DNA of 64,000 nt from Candidatus Cloacimonadales bacterium (GTDB lineage: Bacteria; Cloacimonadota; Cloacimonadia; Cloacimonadales; JAFGVF01): positions 32,001-96,000 of the forward strand of contig CAXXOU010000001.1 of the NCBI GenBank assembly GCA_963677495.2. Direction: 5' to 3'. The position numbers were made by a program, and so were the translations under genes. The notes beneath the pieces were generated by a model. The model made no database searches and was not told where the DNA came from. It was given only the letters and a program-made list of their open reading frames with translations. Numbering within the stretch: the first letter of the stretch is position 1; every line of letters starts with the position of its first letter. This document shows positions 5,118-53,277 of this stretch, piece by piece.

Positions 5118-6152
5118 ATGAAAAAAATAGCAGGATTCATAATAGCATGTTCTGTAACATTAATTCTAGTTGAGTTATTTGTTTCGAATAGCTATGTACT
5201 TCAAAGATATATTAATGATTATAATCAAGATTTAGGCAGAATCAGACGTGCAAGTACAGAGTTTGTTATGTTTAATGAGGGATTTACCGTAAACAGAATT
5301 AATAGCTTTGGTTATGTAGGTAAAGAATATGGAATGGAAAAAGATTCCAGCACATTTAGAGTTGCTGTTTTAGGAGACTCTTATGTAGAAAGCTTCCAGG
5401 TTTTTGATAGAAATTACTTTGGTCGTGTTATCGAAAATGAGATTTCGGAACAGCTTGGTATGAAAATAGAAGTTCTCAATTTTGGAAGAAGTGGTTTTGA
5501 TTTAGGTGATTGTTACGCATATTATCATACTTTCGTCAATGATTTTGAACCTGATTTATCTATAATCATCTTAGGGGAATCAGATTATGAGATAAAGAAC
5601 TATGACCCACTTTTGCCAAAGGTAGTTTTAGATAATGGCAAATTGGATGTTAGTAGAAACTATATTGGCTCATCAAGTGAAAAAAGAATTCAGAAGATAC
5701 AGCCATTTTTAAAACACTCAATAATTTTGAATACTGTAAACATTTGTACAAAAATCATGAATAGAGAGTATCTACTTTCTAAGTCCTTAGATAAACTTTA
5801 CATACCGAAAGCTCCTCCTATAAGTAAAAATGCTGAAGTTAAAACTATTGTTCTAGATGAGAAGGAGAAGAGAATCTTAGATGAGTTAGATAATATAAAC
5901 TGTATTTTCGTTCTTCGTGATCGGGTTAATTTTACTGAATGTTCAGTAGCACAACATCCATTATATGAGAAGTTAGAGCAAGCACCATTTGATACTAAAC
6001 ATTGGGATATTACAAACAAGTATGGACACTGGAATAATGATGCCCACATTCTTGTAGGCGAGTACCTATCAAGTATCATTATTAGAGAAATACAAACTAC
6101 TCATTATAACTTTTTAGATATAAGTCAAATATCGAAGTCAGCATCGAATTGA
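5118..6152 (+). CDS. SGNH-hydrolase-like protein, probable O-acetylation partner of the MBOAT
   Basis: N-terminal TM, LGDSY block, VLNFG, C-terminal GHWN; 9 bp after the MBOAT gene. Confidence 0.7.
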   Translation: MKKIAGFIIACSVTLILVELFVSNSYVLQRYINDYNQDLGRIRRASTEFVMFNEGFTVNRINSFGYVGKEYGMEKDSSTFRVAVLGDSYVESFQVFDRNYFGRVIENEISEQLGMKIEVLNFGRSGFDLGDCYAYYHTFVNDFEPDLSIIILGESDYEIKNYDPLLPKVVLDNGKLDVSRNYIGSSSEKRIQKIQPFLKHSIILNTVNICTKIMNREYLLSKSLDKLYIPKAPPISKNAEVKTIVLDEKEKRILDELDNINCIFVLRDRVNFTECSVAQHPLYEKLEQAPFDTKHWDITNKYGHWNNDAHILVGEYLSSIIIREIQTTHYNFLDISQISKSASN

Positions 6153-24430: not shown

Positions 24431-27223
24431 CTATTTCATCAAAACTGTCTTCACAGTTTTGACTGCATTACCGCTTTGTAGTTTAATAAAGTAGATTCCT
24501 GATGAACATTGGTTACCACTCTTATCAGAGCCGTTCCAAATAACTGTATGTTGTCCGCGGTTCAGGTCGTCATCTAACAGTGTATTCACGTTTTGTCCCC
24601 TTATATTATATATCTCAAGTTTAACTTTACTATTTTCATTAACAAAGAATCTTATATTAGTTACAGGATTAAACGGATTAGGATAATTATTTAACCGTAA
24701 CGGTTGATTGTATGTATGCACTTCTGCATTGTCAACTAAATCTTCACCAAAAGTCTCTACTAAGTGTGCTATAATAGTTCTACTATCATCTAAATAGTAG
24801 AGAGGAACTGATATAATAGATGTTGGTTGACTAATTCTTCCAACAGAAGTTCCCGAATACTGTCCTTGGTCAGTATCAGCAGCAAAATTAGTTTCCCATA
24901 CAATAGATCCGGTAGCATCAACCGGAGTATATGATTCAATCATAATTAGGTGACTGTCAAAGCTAGTCCAAACCAAGTTATCATCTAAAACTAAGGAAAC
25001 TGCTGCATCTTGATAATTGTAAGATATACCATTCAAGGCTGCAGTATTGCTGTAATCAACTGCAGTAATCCCAAACTGATTTAATATATCACCTTCCATG
25101 ATCTCGTAAGGATAACCCATGATTTCATTGAGCTGCGTAGCTACTTTGTAACCGGCAAGCATTATCTTACCACCTAGGTCTAGATATTGTTCAAAAACAT
25201 TATCTGCATCTTCTAACATATTGCCGGCTGAGATACTATTACAGAACCAGAAAACACTTGAATATCTACATAAATCTACCAGCTCAATATTTTCAATATC
25301 TTCAGTATCAATAAACTGATATGGAATTCCTTCAAAACTACTATTATAGAATTCATCACACTCTTCTCTTGTGGGTCTCATAAAACTACCATTACCGGAA
25401 AGAGTATCATCTATTACTAACAATCCCTCGGATAACGATATAGTTGCTCCTCTTAGAATCTCTGTTGGTTCACTTTCATTACCATCAATATCTACTGCTG
25501 TAACATAGTAGTTATAGATTACACCATCTTCGATTCCTAAGTCACTATAGAAATTGTCAGTAAGCGTAATAATATCAACTTCTGTCTGAACTTCCTGAGA
25601 TTTATATAAGTTGTAATGTGAGAAATCTATCTCTGAGTTCTCAGTCCACTGCAAGCTTATATCATCAACACTTAAACTTACCTCAAACTGTTCAGGTGTT
25701 CTTGGGACTTCCATTGGAGTAACATTTACCTCTGTGTAAAGACCCGGTTCTCCATCTTGCATGATTGAGATACCTACATAATATGTTTGACCCGGTGTTA
25801 ATCCGGAAAGAATATACTGTGTATCAGTTGTATCAAAGTAATCGCTATAGGAGTTTTCATAAGTCCCTACTCCTATACGATAGGTTGTTCCTACATCATA
25901 GCTATCCCAGTTCAACTGCACATCCGTACCAGTACCGCTATCAGTTGCAGTGAAATTATCAACATAAACCATGTACATATCAGCAAAAATAACCGATGCA
26001 ACACTAAGCTTAACCATCTCAGTGAAATATGGCAAGTTCATATTAGCAATTATATCATCCAAAGAATGGTAGTAGGGAGAGAATGTATGCTCCTGATTAA
26101 AAATAGAAGGGAAGCCATTTCTAGCAAAAGACCAACTATCTGAATAATGAGAATCCATTTGAGGGAATGGATTTGACTCAAGTGTAGTATACTGTCCTGC
26201 TAACATCTCTTCCATATATTTTAAGTATTCGAACCCACTATAAGCAATAAGATTCAACATCCAAGGTGAGTCTGTTGGTTGAGTTCCAACCATATCATTG
26301 TTGAGCATAAAAATAACGTCTTCATCATTAAAATACATCTCATTAGATATATCTTCACTACCGTGTAAGCCAAGTTCTTCTGCTTCATAAGTCATAAACA
26401 TCATTGTATATCGAGGTTGGTAACCACTTTCAAGAATAACTCTGGCAGTTTCTAAGGCTGCAAGGGTACCTGTTCCATTATCGTCAGAACCCGGTGCACC
26501 TAACATAGGGTCTCCCTGATTAACTATTGAGTCATGGTGTCCTCCAATTATAATGATCTTCTCAGGGCTAACAGTACCCGGTATCACCGCAATTACATTA
26601 GATTCAGGATGATTAAATACCGTGAAGTCAGATTCCCTGAACTGAGTTATGCCGTACTGAGTAAACTTATCCGTAAGCCAGTTCACAACTTCAAAACGAT
26701 TTGGATGAAGACAATATCTGGTTACAAAGTCTTCAAGATGTTGTAGATTTACTGTTAACGTATCCTGACTTACTAATGCCAGTGCATCATCAATAGCATT
26801 TCTGGAGTTAAAGACTTGATTTCTATCAAAGCTTCTCACCTCTTTGGGAAACACCATGGGGTAAAGCTTTTGTATTCTTCTATTTTGAGGAGATTTAATC
26901 TTACGAATAGCAGACTTAGAGACAATATTAGAATTGTTATGTGTAAAAAGTACTTCCAACTCTTCAAGCTCTCCCTCTACAAGAAAAAGCTCTTCACTGT
27001 TTCCTACTTTTAGCAACTTGTACTTGTAATCAAGCGAGTTAAGTTGTGATTTGTCAGTTTCATCAATTTCTGCCACCACAAACTCTTCATTTAACCAATA
27101 AACTTGGTCCAGTTTTCTTATAGTATTAAAGTCATCTTCAAATCGAGTGATTAAGACTAAATCTGATGCAAACAAAGCAATTGTGAATATATAGAGAGCT
27201 ATTACTAGTTTTATCTTTTTCAT
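24431..27223 (-). CDS. Secreted M28-family peptidase with FN3 repeats and a C-terminal FlgD-Ig/T9SS-like domain
   Basis: GGHHDS, GSDDNGTG, AEELGLHGS, NNDMVG, YYHS; C-terminal NYPNPFNP...SGIYFIKL...VLMK. Confidence 0.88.
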   Translation of the reverse strand: MKKIKLVIALYIFTIALFASDLVLITRFEDDFNTIRKLDQVYWLNEEFVVAEIDETDKSQLNSLDYKYKLLKVGNSEELFLVEGELEELEVLFTHNNSNIVSKSAIRKIKSPQNRRIQKLYPMVFPKEVRSFDRNQVFNSRNAIDDALALVSQDTLTVNLQHLEDFVTRYCLHPNRFEVVNWLTDKFTQYGITQFRESDFTVFNHPESNVIAVIPGTVSPEKIIIIGGHHDSIVNQGDPMLGAPGSDDNGTGTLAALETARVILESGYQPRYTMMFMTYEAEELGLHGSEDISNEMYFNDEDVIFMLNNDMVGTQPTDSPWMLNLIAYSGFEYLKYMEEMLAGQYTTLESNPFPQMDSHYSDSWSFARNGFPSIFNQEHTFSPYYHSLDDIIANMNLPYFTEMVKLSVASVIFADMYMVYVDNFTATDSGTGTDVQLNWDSYDVGTTYRIGVGTYENSYSDYFDTTDTQYILSGLTPGQTYYVGISIMQDGEPGLYTEVNVTPMEVPRTPEQFEVSLSVDDISLQWTENSEIDFSHYNLYKSQEVQTEVDIITLTDNFYSDLGIEDGVIYNYYVTAVDIDGNESEPTEILRGATISLSEGLLVIDDTLSGNGSFMRPTREECDEFYNSSFEGIPYQFIDTEDIENIELVDLCRYSSVFWFCNSISAGNMLEDADNVFEQYLDLGGKIMLAGYKVATQLNEIMGYPYEIMEGDILNQFGITAVDYSNTAALNGISYNYQDAAVSLVLDDNLVWTSFDSHLIMIESYTPVDATGSIVWETNFAADTDQGQYSGTSVGRISQPTSIISVPLYYLDDSRTIIAHLVETFGEDLVDNAEVHTYNQPLRLNNYPNPFNPVTNIRFFVNENSKVKLEIYNIRGQNVNTLLDDDLNRGQHTVIWNGSDKSGNQCSSGIYFIKLQSGNAVKTVKTVLMK

Positions 27224-27440
27224 TTTTATCTCCTCTTAACGACTGTAAATATGTAATCACATCAACTGCATGTCAATGAATAATTTCTAGTCCATTGGAT
27301 AAATGGGAATAGTTCTCAGACTTAAGAAAGATTTTTTATTGATACTATACAAGGAACAGTTTACTATCTTGATATAAACATTCATTCTGCATCAGTCTAC
27401 TTTCAGCTTGTCTTTATTCTTTCATGTTTCTATCATAATA

Positions 27441-29215: not shown

Positions 29216-30239
29216 TTCAATGCAAAGAATCCTAACAGCTCTAACACATAAAGAAGGTGATAGAGTACCTTTCATTTTACCTTTAACATTGCATGGTGCA
29301 AAAGAGCTTGTAATGTCTATTAAAGAGTACTTCTCTTCAGCAGACAATGTGTATAAAGGTCAAATTATATTAAAAGAAAAATATGATCACGATGCATATA
29401 TTGGATTTCTACATGCACCCTTGGAGATAGCAGCCTTTGGAGGTGAAGTTATCTATGTAGAGGATGGACCCCCAAACTCAGGAGAACCGGTTATAAAATG
29501 TGCTAAAGATATTCTGACTCTTGAAGTTCCTGACGTGAAGAATAATAAACATACTAGATTAACTTTAGATACAATATCTAAACTAAAAGAGGTAGCAACC
29601 GATCAGACACCAATAATTGGTGTGGTTATGTCTCCATTCTCTTTACCTGTTATGCAGATGGGGTTCGATAAATATCTAGATTTAATCTATGAAGACAGAG
29701 AGCTTTTCTGGAAATTGATGGAGAAGAACCTTGATTTCGCAAAAAGTTGGGCTAATGCTCAAGTCGAAGCAGGAGCAGCTGCAATTGTCTATTTTGATCC
29801 TGTGTCTTCACCAACAATTATCCCAACTGAGTTATACAAAGAAACAGGTCTAAAGGTGGCACAGCAATTTGTACCCAAAGTAAATGCCGGAGTAGTCTCT
29901 CACTTTGCTTCCGGTAGTTGCCTTCCAATTCTCGATGATGTGATTGGCTATGGGAGTGCAGGAGTTGGAGTTAGTTCTAAAGAGGATTTAGAAGAACTGA
30001 AAAAACGTTCAACAGGTAAGATTACTTTACTTGGGAATTTAAATGCAATTGAAATGCGAAACTGGGATATTGAGACGACAAAAGAAAAAGTTAAAGAGAT
30101 AATAAATATAGCTGGTAAAAACGGTGGCCTAATTCTCATGGATAATCATGGTGAAATCCCTTGGCAAGTAAGTGATGAGATACTATTTGCTATCGCAGAT
30201 GCTGTTAAAACTTATGGGAAATACCCTTTAGGAGAGTGA
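29202..30239 (+). CDS. UroD/MtaA-CmuA-family methylcobamide methyltransferase-like protein
   Basis: GDRVP, SPFSL, AQVEAGA, FDPVSS, LLGNLN; overlaps the corrinoid gene. Confidence 0.85.
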   Translation: MEKISSMQRILTALTHKEGDRVPFILPLTLHGAKELVMSIKEYFSSADNVYKGQIILKEKYDHDAYIGFLHAPLEIAAFGGEVIYVEDGPPNSGEPVIKCAKDILTLEVPDVKNNKHTRLTLDTISKLKEVATDQTPIIGVVMSPFSLPVMQMGFDKYLDLIYEDRELFWKLMEKNLDFAKSWANAQVEAGAAAIVYFDPVSSPTIIPTELYKETGLKVAQQFVPKVNAGVVSHFASGSCLPILDDVIGYGSAGVGVSSKEDLEELKKRSTGKITLLGNLNAIEMRNWDIETTKEKVKEIINIAGKNGGLILMDNHGEIPWQVSDEILFAIADAVKTYGKYPLGE

Positions 30240-49571: not shown

Positions 49572-51743
49572 TTATTTTATCATAACTAGTTTTTTGACTT
49601 CACTATCTCCACAATTCTGAATTCTGCAAAAATATGTTCCTGAAGCTAAACATCGATTTTTAGTATCTTTGCCGTTCCAAGTGAACTTGTTTCTTCCAAC
49701 GGAATAATTCTGCTTATGAGAGAAAACCAATTCTCCTCTTATGTTGTAAAAACTAATATTTGTCTCATCATTACTTAAGACATTGAAGCTAATAGTAGTT
49801 GTAGGATTAAATGGGTTTGGATAGTTATTTAAACTAAGTCTGTTATCTAGACTCGGTTGAGAACTTTCATCTAAACTAACTATATCAGCAAGTAGAATAT
49901 GGGGGTAGCCATCGTTAACCTCAGAATCGATACTCCAATAATCATCGTCTCCGTTGATTGTCTCATCTAGCATGTCCCAACCTGCACCCACATATGTCGA
50001 AAAGTCTTTCATGTCATTTGTTGTAAGCCCAATTGCACCATAATTTGACCCGCTCATACCAGTTACTTCCATATCCCAAAATGAAGAGTTGAATGATCTT
50101 TGAGAAATACCGGCTATTGCATATGTGTTTTCATCACCGTATACCAATGTTGTACTATATATGAAGCTTATGTATCCATTAGCACTTCCAAAAACTCCAC
50201 CTACATAGTTTGAACCTGTAACTTCACCTCTAGTATAACAATTATTACAGCTACCATATGTAGTAAGTTTACCGACCAATCCTCCAACATACTCACTTGC
50301 AGCAACTGTACCGGTAAAGGATGAATAATCAATATTGCTATCAATACTGAACCCGACTAAACCACCACAATTACTAGCACCATAAACTTGACCTGAAGTT
50401 TTACAATTATAGATTGCACTATTAACATCAAATCCTGTTAATATGGCACAATCCCATCTACCGTTAACATACCCATCATTTATAATAAGATTCTCAATTC
50501 TTGCATGTTTCGATAGGCCAAAAAATCCCACTCTGTTGTATCCACTGTAATGTAATGAAAAAGATTCTACTGCAAAACCTGCACCATCAAACCTTCCATC
50601 GAAATAAGGGAAAAATAATTCATGAATACTAGATAGGTTCAAATCATTAGTTAACTTGAAAGCGTAATTATCTATCTGTGCGAATACAATTGCAGTTCGA
50701 AGATCTCCAGGTGTCGAGATTAAGTAATAGTCTCCATCATTTAGAAAAGAACTTGCTATATCAAGAGTTAAATCATTTAACATCCACTCACTATAGATTT
50801 CTGATGACATAGCTCCCAAAAGCCACTTGGCTGAGTTGTTTATCGTTGAGTCATTATAGTCATAAAAGCTATTTCTTACTTCAGATTCATGTAATTCAAT
50901 TATTGCACATAATATACCCAATTTTGTTTCACCACTAATAGATGCGCTAGTATAACTGTTAGATATCTGGCTGTGTTCAACCCTTGCAACAAGTCCTGCA
51001 AGTGTATGTGTACCAGATATTGATACTGAACTGTTACAGTTTTCTATTAAACTATCATCTGCCCTTCCGGCTAACCCGCCTAGATCATTTGAACCTTGTA
51101 TTACTACAGAGCTTGTGCAACCTCTTAGGATTGATTCATTGCGCATGTATCCTACAAAACCACCCCCAAGATTGTTACAGACGATTTCACAGTCCACAAC
51201 ACAGTTCTCGATTGTCGTTTCACTACAGGCCCCAATCAATCCTCCAACATGTATAGTGGCATCTAGAGTTCCTGATACAGAGCAGTTATTAATATAAGAG
51301 GTGTCACTTAAACCAACTAATATTCCGGTTTCCCATCCTCTGGATAGAACAGTTGCATCATTTAGGTGAACATTTTGGATAGTTGCTGAGAAAATATAAC
51401 CAAAGAATCCTAGATTACAAACAAAATTTAATTCTGAAGCATCCAAGTTTGATATAACATAATCATTACCATTATAAGAACCAGTAAACATTGTATCATC
51501 ATTACCGATAGGACTAAATCCTGCATAGTCATTCCAGCTTTCAGTATCAGATGCATCAATATCAGCAGTTTGAATAAAATGACTACTCCATGAACTATCA
51601 TTTGTACTAAACCATAGAAGATTATCTAATGTAGCAATTTGGTAAGGATCATTTTCTGTACCGGTTCCAATAGGTTGAACACCATCCGCAATAAGTGAAA
51701 ACACACAAAATGTAAGTAAAAGAGATAGAACAAACTTATACAT
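49572..51743 (-). CDS. Secreted GLUG-motif repeat protein with a C-terminal FlgD-Ig/T9SS-like domain
   Basis: GTGTENDPYQI, FTGSYNG, repeated VGGLVG, NDGYP, NYPNPFNP...KLVMIK. Confidence 0.85.
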   Translation of the reverse strand: MYKFVLSLLLTFCVFSLIADGVQPIGTGTENDPYQIATLDNLLWFSTNDSSWSSHFIQTADIDASDTESWNDYAGFSPIGNDDTMFTGSYNGNDYVISNLDASELNFVCNLGFFGYIFSATIQNVHLNDATVLSRGWETGILVGLSDTSYINNCSVSGTLDATIHVGGLIGACSETTIENCVVDCEIVCNNLGGGFVGYMRNESILRGCTSSVVIQGSNDLGGLAGRADDSLIENCNSSVSISGTHTLAGLVARVEHSQISNSYTSASISGETKLGILCAIIELHESEVRNSFYDYNDSTINNSAKWLLGAMSSEIYSEWMLNDLTLDIASSFLNDGDYYLISTPGDLRTAIVFAQIDNYAFKLTNDLNLSSIHELFFPYFDGRFDGAGFAVESFSLHYSGYNRVGFFGLSKHARIENLIINDGYVNGRWDCAILTGFDVNSAIYNCKTSGQVYGASNCGGLVGFSIDSNIDYSSFTGTVAASEYVGGLVGKLTTYGSCNNCYTRGEVTGSNYVGGVFGSANGYISFIYSTTLVYGDENTYAIAGISQRSFNSSFWDMEVTGMSGSNYGAIGLTTNDMKDFSTYVGAGWDMLDETINGDDDYWSIDSEVNDGYPHILLADIVSLDESSQPSLDNRLSLNNYPNPFNPTTTISFNVLSNDETNISFYNIRGELVFSHKQNYSVGRNKFTWNGKDTKNRCLASGTYFCRIQNCGDSEVKKLVMIK

Positions 51744-51822
51744 AATTCCTCCCAAGCTAAGTTCTTAGGTAAGATTGTATAAGTAAAAGTTTTGCTGTCA
51801 ATAGAAATAATTTTGATAAAGA

Positions 51823-51900
51823 TGGTCGGGATGACAGGATTCGAACCTGCGACCACTTGAACCCCATTCAAGTGCGCTACCCGGGCTGCGCTACATCCCG
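51823..51900 (-). tRNA. tRNA-Pro(GGG)
   Basis: CGGGATG acceptor stem, CTTGA-ATGGGGT-TCAAG anticodon arm, GGTTCGAATCC T-arm, encoded CCA. Confidence 0.97.
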
Positions 51901-52027
51901 ACTCATAAATCTACTTTTTAAGTACTATTTTTGTTGGCAAGGAAAAAGTGCTAAAACACTGTTAAGTATTCTCTAACAGATTTATTCTCATGTTTTTATT
52001 GATATCTTGTAACAATCAAGTATGTCA

Positions 52028-52043
52028 GGGCATAATAATTGCA
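52028..52043 (+). promoter_or_regulatory. Putative sigma54 (-24/-12) promoter
   Basis: GGGCAT-AATAA-TTGCA, with GG-N10-GC spacing, about 70 bp upstream of ATG 52114. Confidence 0.5.
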
Positions 52044-52113
52044 TGTGATTCTAATTAGGTTTTAACATAAAACTGATTATAATAGAGAAAAAGATATACA
52101 TAATGGAGGTATC

Positions 52114-53130
52114 ATGAAGAAGATTGGCTTAATGCTAGCTGTACTTACTATGTTTGGATTACTGGCAGCTCAAAATGTCCTTCTTTGGGATAACGATAAT
52201 TACTCGAGTTTCCAGGAGCCGGGTGGGGAAGATTATTTCGGTTGTGAAGTATCGCTCGGTAGAGCTCTGCTTAGCAATGGAATAAATTACACAGAAACTA
52301 ACATCCTACCGGGCAACCTTTCGCAGTACGACGCTGTCTTTGTGACGTTAGGCGTCTACTGCGTATCCTGAGGAGTCACTCCTCCGGGATCAATAGGCTC
52401 GGTCGAGCTAAATATATTAGTTAACTATTTGAACCAAGGTGGTGCCTTGTACGTTGAAGGAGTTGATTTTGTGAACGACTACTCCGATACACCACTCATG
52501 CCATATTTTGGAGTTACAATTGGTTTCAACGGCTTCCCTAATGGTATTAATCACCTCGAAGGTGTTCCAGGATCTATAGCTGATGGGCTTGATTTTAATT
52601 ACCTGTTTGGTGCTTATCCGGATTATATGGTTGATGAAATCTCCCTTGAAGGTGCAGATGCTGTACTTGTATCTCCGGATAATAATAACCGTGTAACTTC
52701 ATACGCGACACGTGAGTCTCGTACTATTGCTTCATCTATCGTTATAGGTGGAATCTATGATAGTGATGAGCATACAAAAGCGGAACTCATGAATAGATAC
52801 ATTCAATTCTTATTACCAACAACTTCAAACGACGAAAACAGTCAGCCGGTAGCAACTGCTGAACTTCATTCCGCATACCCTAATCCATTTAATCCGACTA
52901 CAACAATTAGTTTTTCACTGAAGGAAAAACAACAGTTCTCTCTTGATATCTATGATATTAAGGGTAGACATGTTACTACCCTAGCCGAAGGACTTGGTGA
53001 CAAAGGTCTTAATAGTGTTATTTGGAAAGGTATTGATTCCAACGGAAAGAGTGTCAATAGCGGGGTTTACTTCTGTAGACTTAAAACTACCGACTCTTCC
53101 TTAACGACGAAGTTAACACTTTTGAAATAA
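52114..53130 (+). CDS. Putative secreted selenoprotein (CxxU, Sec86) with a C-terminal FlgD-Ig/T9SS-like domain, 338 aa
   Basis: Track ORFs 52114-52371 and 52429-53130 are in the same frame and separated only by TGA 52369-52371: ...LGVYCVS-U-GVTPPGSIGSVELNILVNYLNQGG... The signal peptide lies in the first part and YPNPFNP in the second. Confidence 0.8.
52365..52410 (+). promoter_or_regulatory. SECIS-like RNA structure
   Basis: Hairpin TAGGCTC-GGTC-GAGCTA (52394-52410) with a G-initial loop 29 nt after the UGA; second stem 52365-52390 encloses the UGA. Confidence 0.65.
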
Positions 53131-53150
53131 TAGTTATAGTTCATAAGACT

Positions 53151-53181
53151 AAAGAGTGGGACAGATGCCCACTCTTTTTTT
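53151..53181 (+). terminator. Intrinsic terminator
   Basis: AAAGAGTGGG-ACAGATG-CCCACTCTTTTTTT. Confidence 0.85.
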
Positions 53182-53277
53182 ATCTTTAATGCATTAGCGA
53201 TAGACACATTGATAATTGTATAGCAATACTTCTTGACAATCAAGTATGAATCACTCAAAATATAATATAGAGGAAGA

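Follow-up and report, generated by a model that had tools for sequence, protein, structure and literature searches.

A predicted surface-sorted Cys-x-x-Sec selenoprotein of Cloacimonadota on an amidotransferase-like fold

Does the TGA codon at positions 52369-52371 of a 64,000-nucleotide stretch of a Candidatus Cloacimonadales genome (assembly GCA_963677495.2, contig CAXXOU010000001.1, positions 32,001 to 96,000 of the forward strand; the whole stretch is called the window below) end a small gene, disrupt a larger one, or encode selenocysteine (Sec)? The codon is the sole interruption of one frame on the + strand, 52114-53130, which closes with TAA at 53128-53130 and has a read-through product of 338 aa. 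It lies in the context TGC GTA TCC TGA GGA (C-V-S-*-G), and the open reading frames (ORFs) called on its two sides, 52114-52371 (85 aa, ATG) and 52429-53130 (233 aa, TTG), share the same frame, with 19 codons between the TGA and the TTG. A sequence-only reading had described the shared frame, the single TGA within Cys-Val-Ser-TGA-Gly and the 19 bridging codons, all of which are borne out by the coordinates, and had proposed an exported selenoprotein. The evidence presented here makes it very probable that the locus is a genuine Sec-encoding gene, predicted to specify a surface protein of the type IX secretion system (T9SS). On the basis of the continuous frame and of full-length homologs with the same single TGA, 52114-53130 (+) would be a complete selenoprotein gene in which 338 codons precede the TAA and codon 86 specifies Sec.

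The strongest evidence is comparative. A six-frame search for the N-terminal domain covered 61 genomes, comprising this one and 60 relatives; among the matches listed, the domain was found in 26 genomes, 20 with exactly one TGA inside the match and 6 with none. In an alignment of 20 loci, TGA (15/20) and the Cys codons TGC/TGT (5/20) fall in the same column of an ungapped C-x-x-(U/C)-G-x-T-P-P-G motif. A contig scan based on one genome per species provided 17 further motif loci, with TGA in 16 and Cys in 1, and once two duplicates were dropped, 35 distinct homologous domains were obtained, of which 30 have TGA and 5 have Cys (CxxC) at the Sec column. Trp, Arg or Gly, which had been named beforehand as the pattern expected of a pseudogene, occurs at this column in none of the 35 distinct domains, whereas the expected TGA or Cys at residue 86 is what they carry; the UGA at 52369-52371 (+) is accordingly annotated as predicted Sec 86. 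The TGA column is shared across several families of the order. Three genomes of the same genus contain full-length homologs (61-67% identity) with the same single TGA, and since all four same-genus genes are full length and have kept the TGA, both sides of it are under selection in these genes.

These counts leave little room for a pseudogene created by a nonsense mutation, or for two small genes independent of each other. Such an explanation would account for the splitting of the locus into two ORFs by gene callers, and the 3' part is present in a public collection as a 227-aa protein. However, 30 of the 35 distinct homologs, from several families of the order, keep the TGA at one column and the remaining 5 have Cys in its place; each half is conserved, and the two together make up a single domain. 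The second part also lacks the start signals of a separate gene: its TTG is not conserved as a start, and no purine run comparable to a Shine-Dalgarno sequence was seen by eye upstream of TTG 52429. Such a sequence, GGAGG, was read directly at 52105-52109 (+), 4 nt 5' of ATG 52114, in agreement with the earlier statement that only the first half has a ribosome-binding site. Taken together, a pseudogene or a pair of genes is regarded as extremely improbable.

An equally low probability is assigned to a TGA that is a sequencing or assembly error, or to a UGA read as Trp, Gly or Cys without selenium through a variant code or near-cognate read-through. One public protein, P0006, has Trp at the column in question, and the DNA runs derive from a single sample, both of which would suit this explanation. 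Against an assembly slip, contigs assembled from three DNA runs of that sample reproduce 52050-53200 with 0 differences and keep the TGA, and the same TGA occurs in other genera. With respect to the code, TGA closes 133 of the 1357 stop-to-stop frames of at least 300 codons in the genome, and neither selA nor selB contains internal stops; the code is therefore standard, as had been claimed. The TGA triplets cited as stops in support of that claim, at 1938, 6635 and 30239, are present as triplets (30237-30239 on the + strand; the other two as TCA on the + strand, that is, TGA on the - strand). In addition, the natural substitute at this column is Cys and not Trp or Gly.

In a maximum-likelihood tree with a midpoint root, Cys forms are nested among Sec forms, and 2 changes are needed (at least 1). 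Loss of the Sec trait was considered as the cause of the Cys forms and rejected, as selA is present in all 6 genomes with a Cys form. According to record titles, the family belongs to Candidatus Cloacimonadota, with three contigs labelled Armatimonadota and one labelled Bacteroidales. The three Armatimonadota-labelled sequences (L037, L039, L042) are of the Sec type and nest tightly among those of Cloacimonadota, and their labels may reflect mis-binning. The Bacteroidales-labelled one (L046, on a 104-kb contig), also of the Sec type, is a highly divergent sequence in which no simple hairpin of conforming geometry is found.

Decoding of UGA as Sec in bacteria requires a bacterial selenocysteine insertion sequence (bSECIS), whose geometry is given in the available part of PMC13188914 as a loop of 3-9 nt, a stem of at least 4 bp, a G in the first two loop positions and a location 16-37 nt past the UGA. 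The stability criterion stated there, a minimum free energy of at most -7.5 kcal/mol, applies to the whole element, whereas the present scan considered bulge-free stems alone. A typical Sec gene of the family has a hairpin of 5-7 bp from about 16 nt past the UGA, with a loop (C)GUG(A), GUU or GUC. Across 30 Sec sequences, the hairpin columns 27-33/37-43 have a covariation of 0.483, compared with 0.226 for shuffled alignments (0 of 500 reach the observed value) and 0.11-0.20 when the columns are slid. Pair 30-40 is UA in 14 sequences, AU in 9, CG in 4, GU in 2 and UG in 1, being unpaired in 0, and pair 32-38 is paired in 29/30. The hairpin 3' of the UGA is maintained by compensatory changes. 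A hairpin of conforming geometry is found in 29 of the 30 Sec genes, and a conforming stem at or below -5 kcal/mol in 26 of them. Among controls from this genome, the ordinary TGA stops give 6 of 133 and the coding positions 38 of 1357.

In the window, the predicted SECIS-type hairpin is GGCUC-GGUC-GAGCU at 52396-52409 (+), with 5 bp, a GGUC loop and a spacing of 29 nt between the UGA and the start of the loop, which lies within the bSECIS geometry and bears out the GC-rich hairpin described earlier from the letters. The loop GGUC is also that of the Escherichia coli fdhF SECIS. Within the genus, synonymous sites are frozen over the hairpin: of 12 conserved residues in codons 87-101, 8 use one and the same codon, compared with 26 of 149 elsewhere (Fisher p 5e-4), where synonymous sites are saturated among the four same-genus genes. 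A second hairpin, 5' and embedding the UGA (GAGGAG...CUCCUC), was tried and rejected. Its covariation of 0.073, versus 0.040, is reached by 17 of 500 shuffles, and a slid control gives 0.086; it was left out of the element because codons for Gly and Pro-Pro account for the pairing. The Cys form L009 carries GCUC-GGUC-GAGC as in the genus of the window, despite a protein identity of 45%. The presence of the hairpin in Cys forms suggests that Sec was converted to Cys recently or that the hairpin has a second role.

The machinery required for Sec insertion, for which a search of the genome had been recommended, is present in full. Adjoining selA (444 bits) and selB (323 bits) genes, both above curated cut-offs, occupy C1:23431-26490 and thus lie a few kb ahead of the window, and selD (381 bits, likewise above its curated cut-off) at C1:618556-619476 (-), outside the window. 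As selD contains one in-frame TGA, SelD is itself a selenoprotein in this genome. A tRNA-Sec is found on contig 2 (aragorn tRNA-SeC, anticodon tca). Across the relatives, selA occurs in 20/20 genomes with the TGA form, and among the matches listed no N-domain match was found in the 17 genomes that lack selA.

Export to the cell surface is indicated at both ends of the protein. The N-terminus, MKKIGLMLAVLTMFGLLAAQN, is by eye shaped like a signal peptide for the Sec translocon, in line with the earlier assignment to the first half; judged from its n, h and c regions, the putative signal peptide covers about residues 1-20, MKKIGLMLAVLTMFGLLAAQ, at 52114-52173 (+). All homologs that have the N-terminal domain begin with a similar hydrophobic leader. 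At the other end, the sorting domain recognized by the sequence-only reading is confirmed by two models, PF18962 (Por_Secre_tail; residues 255-334, E 1.2e-9, 38.8 bits, cut-off 27) and TIGR04183 (E 3.9e-10, 39.6 bits, cut-off 23), and is placed at 52876-53115 (+). The genome encodes PorU (NF033707, 615.8 bits, cut-off 420) and SprA (TIGR04189, 431 bits summed, cut-off 200), and T9SS cargo is very abundant in it, since the tail region of the PorU model matches about 50 frames. The gene in the window represents the minimal form of the family (leader, domain and tail); all 8 of the 8 longer Sec homologs scanned also end in a T9SS tail and combine the domain with MAM, CARDB, Ig-like, NIDO or CarboxypepD_reg domains. 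The neighbouring 727-residue ORF, 49572-51755 (-), also ends in a T9SS tail of the NYPNPFNP type.

What kind of domain carries the Sec residue? Residues 1-250 have no match at E up to 1 in Pfam and NCBIfam, and scans of the read-through protein with both collections return the T9SS tail only. AlphaFold2, run on the 20-sequence alignment, gave a best model with a predicted local distance difference test score (pLDDT) of 92.2 and a predicted template-modelling score of 0.91. This model matches 2gk3 (Z 17.2, root-mean-square deviation (rmsd) 3.1 over 184 residues), 5xb7 (Z 17.0) and 3rht (Z 16.4), with 58 chains at Z of at least 8, true glutamine amidotransferases (GATases) at Z 11-14, and a Foldseek E of 1.8e-8. 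According to the model, the domain has a class I glutamine-amidotransferase-like (GATase1-like) fold; together with the profile match and conservation, this places the predicted domain at residues 22-235, 52177-52818 (+). Thioredoxin-type Pfam and NCBIfam models gave no match at E up to 1, and the earlier view that the fold does not resemble thioredoxin is thus supported by the structure matches. The modelled domain contains the loop C83-V-S-U86-G-V-T-P-P-G (52360-52389, +; Cys83 at 52360-52362), which is specific to the subfamily and whose C, U/C, T and P are invariant in 20/20 aligned domains. As neither Lys nor Arg occurs in residues 51-192, a tryptic peptide around U86 would be 142 residues long.

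A profile search of 1.84 billion representatives recovered 1451 proteins at E of at most 0.001. Domain classes were counted for the 188 domains in the best 150 of these 1451 proteins: 95 start at residue 5 or earlier and align only past the Sec column, and look like gene-caller fragments of Sec genes; six are CxxC (CxxC-G-x-T/I/R-PP), one is CxxW, and 63 have neither the Cys pair nor the TPPG loop. In the last group, which includes versions found in secreted S8 and M14 peptidases, the CxxU/TPPG loop is absent and the corresponding segment is typically G-I-Y-P/S-N-N-H-V. Residues W25, D26, D28, Y113, E115 and G116 are common to the Sec domain and its Cys-less relatives, and because the W-D-x-D and Y-x-E-G motifs occur in all groups, the CxxU loop can be regarded as an invention of the subfamily on a common scaffold. 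In longer members, DUF1573/HYDIN Ig-like domains follow the CxxU domain. The protein with Trp at the Sec column, P0006 (344 aa; C-S-G-W-G-L-T-P-P-G), may owe it to a gene caller that translated TGA under code 4. A search of the protein library with residues 20-240 at near lengths recovered nothing beyond the 3' ORF of the window itself, and in the ESM Atlas the natural Cys homolog P0003 retrieved only unnamed 'hypothetical protein' clusters at 0.92, with no functional lead.

Within its own genome, the domain profile matches 52177-52812 (E 2.9e-89), the only strong copy there. Weak matches outside the window, C4:655569-656099 (-) with E 2e-12 and C3:381431-381790 (+) with E 1.8e-3, lie inside frames of 915 and 914 residues and are probably Cys-less scaffold relatives. 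Inside the window, the 934-residue frame 24431-27235 (-), an M28-type peptidase with a T9SS tail according to the earlier description, had been said to resemble the domain. An in-register alignment is obtained between its residues at about 655-755 and the strand-helix-strand core of the domain. hhalign pairs the same segments as that description did, but at a probability of 3.9%, and the profile score is 1.6 bits; a Cys-less version of the scaffold may be present in this frame.

The fold itself raises the question of whether the protein is a hydrolase or transferase with Sec86 or Cys83 as its catalytic nucleophile, analogous to the Cys of GATases and of C26 and C56 peptidases. True GATases are among the structure matches (Z 11-14), a GATase selenoprotein with a Sec nucleophile (GxUxG) has been predicted (PMC13188914; available part of PMC12013277), and the Cys-less relatives are located in secreted S8 and M14 peptidases. 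The order of secondary-structure elements, from which we infer the mapping of loop to elbow, would argue otherwise. It puts the CxxU loop behind the strand that precedes helix 75-86, one strand earlier than the place where a nucleophile elbow would be expected, after strand 90-95 (Y-V-E-G-V), which has no Cys. Moreover, the top fold matches are non-catalytic modules (STM3548, a GH42 domain and ThuA-like proteins), and NF004836 and all GATase models remain unmatched at E up to 1. A nucleophilic role is accordingly considered improbable.

For the selenoprotein gene favoured here, the following course of events can be proposed. The gene would be transcribed on its own, from a promoter-like site to an intrinsic terminator, and with its Shine-Dalgarno sequence would be translated from ATG 52114; at the UGA, the hairpin at 52396-52409 would recruit SelB with Sec-tRNA(Sec), so that Sec is inserted at position 86 and translation ends at the TAA. 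The signal peptide would direct the chain through the Sec translocon, and the sorting domain would then hand it to the T9SS, by which cargo is anchored on the cell surface. The mature protein would consist of a single GATase1-like domain with C83-x-x-U86-G-x-T-P-P-G in the loop after the third core strand, next to the conserved acidic residues D26, D28 and E115 at the C-terminal edge of the sheet. The Cys-Sec pair would presumably be the working site. The likeliest proposal, to which we give somewhat less than an even chance, is a selenenylsulfide/selenol-thiol redox centre whose substrates outside the cell could include disulfides, polysulfide or peroxide. It is based on a Cys three residues from a Sec that can be replaced by Cys, the usual mark of a redox site (PMC13188914). 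Of the earlier proposal of an exported CxxU redox selenoprotein, export and Sec are thus supported, and the redox part stays tentative because a metal-binding knuckle is a live rival.

For the same selenoprotein, the C-x-x-U-G loop could instead form a surface knuckle that binds metal or metalloid (e.g., Cu, Ni, Zn, Hg, As or Se species) for capture, sensing or detoxification. In the model, DSSP assigns a C62-T68 bridge (domain numbering), and U65, with Gly as the next residue, forms the tip of a tight turn. Such a tight C-x-x-U-G turn recalls the CxxCG 'knuckle' of rubredoxin-type metal sites. The invariant acidic residues D26, D28 and E115 lie on neighbouring loops, and 65% of the 20 aligned domains have a third Cys (C44, 'GCE'); His is found at the Sec column in 38% of the 63 Cys-less relatives, and several tabulated selenoprotein families bind metal (PMC13188914). 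However, the invariant soft ligands number only two, as conservation does not extend to the third Cys, and in selenoproteins a redox site is the commoner role of a CxxU/CxxC pair (PMC13188914). Metal binding is thus possible, if rather unlikely.

Several observations weigh against the interpretation as an expressed, surface-sorted redox selenoprotein. The three DNA runs are not independent confirmation of the TGA, because they come from one sample that is maybe the source of the assembly. The RNA record consists of one 210-nt metatranscriptome contig with 3 mismatches at 52610-52819, which does not span the UGA and could represent DNA or a relative; that the remainder of the gene is uncovered in this run is uninformative. 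The window hairpin is short (5 bp) and at -5.4 kcal/mol in the bulge-free scan weaker than the -7.5 of the bSECIS model, a value that only 8 of the 30 Sec loci reach in that scan. In the genus of the window, the hairpin is displaced by 9 nt (three codons) in the 3' direction relative to most family members, which refines the earlier expectation of a hairpin conserved among homologs, one that the covariation over 30 Sec sequences otherwise upholds; as it is identical in nucleotides in all 4 same-genus genes, it cannot covary within the genus. Cys forms (L009, L010-L013) keep a hairpin 3' of the Cys codon, so the pairing may partly stem from the codons of P-G-x-V-G-S/T, or these forms may have arisen from Sec forms recently. 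With regard to the structure, the other four AlphaFold2 models have pLDDT values from 74.5 to 55.9, the block of the CxxU loop has a pLDDT of 75, and the nearness of C83/U86 to D26, D28 and E115 is derived from topology. Finally, for a redox role, we know of no electron donor at the outer surface.

Comparison with known systems helps to place the predicted selenoprotein. Its fold is shared, over the whole 214-residue domain, with STM3548 (2gk3), the GH42 'trimerisation' domain (5xb7, 4oif), 3rht, ThuA-like proteins (4jqs, 1t0b) and the N-terminal GIFT domain of IFT52 (5fms). These non-catalytic GATase1-like modules, often accessory domains of extracytoplasmic enzymes, match at Z 17.2, 17.0, 16.4, 15.1, 14.4 and 13.5, superposing 180-189 residues at rmsd 2.9-3.4, but their identity to the domain is 12-18%, none is a selenoprotein or has been reported with a CxxC/CxxU loop, and the Pfam and NCBIfam models of their families do not match the selenoprotein. 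The only tabulated selenoprotein on an amidotransferase fold is the GATase selenoprotein (GxUxG) (PMC13188914; available part of PMC12013277); there, Sec replaces the nucleophile of a true cytoplasmic GATase, whereas here the CxxU lies in another loop of an exported protein that NF004836 does not match. The TonB receptor (FCYXU) is likewise a CxxU selenoprotein of the cell envelope predicted from Sec/Cys pairs (PMC13188914), but it is an outer-membrane beta-barrel, neither T9SS cargo nor GATase1-like, and its model NF049945 was unmatched at E up to 1.

Exported selenoproteins with a thioredoxin fold (thiol:disulfide interchange, DsbA-like and DsbG-like proteins; UxxC) have in common with the predicted protein that they are secreted, that Sec and Cys are three residues apart and that a redox role is presumed (PMC13188914). 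They are mostly UxxC and periplasmic, in contrast to CxxU, a GATase1-like fold and T9SS surface sorting here. In the DUF1573 selenoprotein (PF07610), Sec is located inside DUF1573 in a UGC motif, while in the window it falls in the GATase1-like domain of a protein without DUF1573. More generally, none of the 119 prokaryotic selenoprotein families tabulated in a 2026 review (PMC13188914) fits by motif or description or by Pfam/NCBIfam model, the few entries with cd or PTHR models being compared by description; the statement that no known selenoprotein family could be matched therefore still stands. The CxxU family is also not among the nine new families of deep-Sep in the available part of that source, and BSepDB, as far as its available description goes, searches for known families only and includes Cloacimonadota species. 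A literature search linking selenoproteins or selenocysteine with Cloacimonadota, Cloacimonetes, Cloacimonas or type IX secretion retrieved nothing relevant. In public records, Cys forms go by the names 'hypothetical protein', 'large repetitive protein' or 'T9SS type A sorting domain-containing protein'.

On balance, it seems probable that the family is an apparently undescribed, mostly Sec-containing one that is widespread in Cloacimonadota, with the first reported selenoprotein cargo of the T9SS at the cell surface and the first Cys-x-x-Sec on a normally non-catalytic GATase1-like scaffold, serving selenium-based extracellular redox or chalcogen/metal handling in these anaerobes, and with Sec as the older and Cys as the secondary state. 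It would not constitute a new kind of system, because new bacterial selenoprotein families turn up regularly; the surface location and the scaffold are what is unusual. To our knowledge, nearly all bacterial selenoproteins are cytoplasmic or periplasmic, and most are built on thioredoxin-like folds. If the proposal is true, selenium chemistry would be widened both in location, to the cell exterior, and in manner, to a passive accessory scaffold. Since most public members are N-terminally truncated fragments or are named 'hypothetical' or 'T9SS sorting domain', the selenoproteomes and surface proteomes of Cloacimonadota are under-annotated. Bacterial SECIS models could also be tested cleanly on this family, given its short stems of 5-7 bp and a hairpin shifted by three codons in one genus.

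The surroundings of the gene contain a few further features. A scan of the window with Rfam at gathering thresholds reported tRNA only, a result that is uninformative on bacterial SECIS elements. Downstream of the gene, a putative intrinsic terminator with a 10-bp stem followed by a T run is located at about 53151-53187 (+). Upstream, a consensus scan proposed a promoter-like site at 52007-52036 (+), with TTGTAA, 18 nt and CATAAT; it is weak, as the scan gave 8 sites against 5.2 expected. Directly upstream of the selenoprotein gene on the opposite strand lies a tRNA-Pro gene (anticodon GGG), 51823-51900 (-). A 13-nt motif, ACAATCAAGTATG, occurs exactly at 52012-52024 and 53236-53248 (+) and with 1 mismatch at 6012-6024, giving 3 matches against 0.23 expected. 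It falls inside the promoter-like sites of the selenoprotein gene and of the next gene on the + strand, and may be a shared promoter or operator element.

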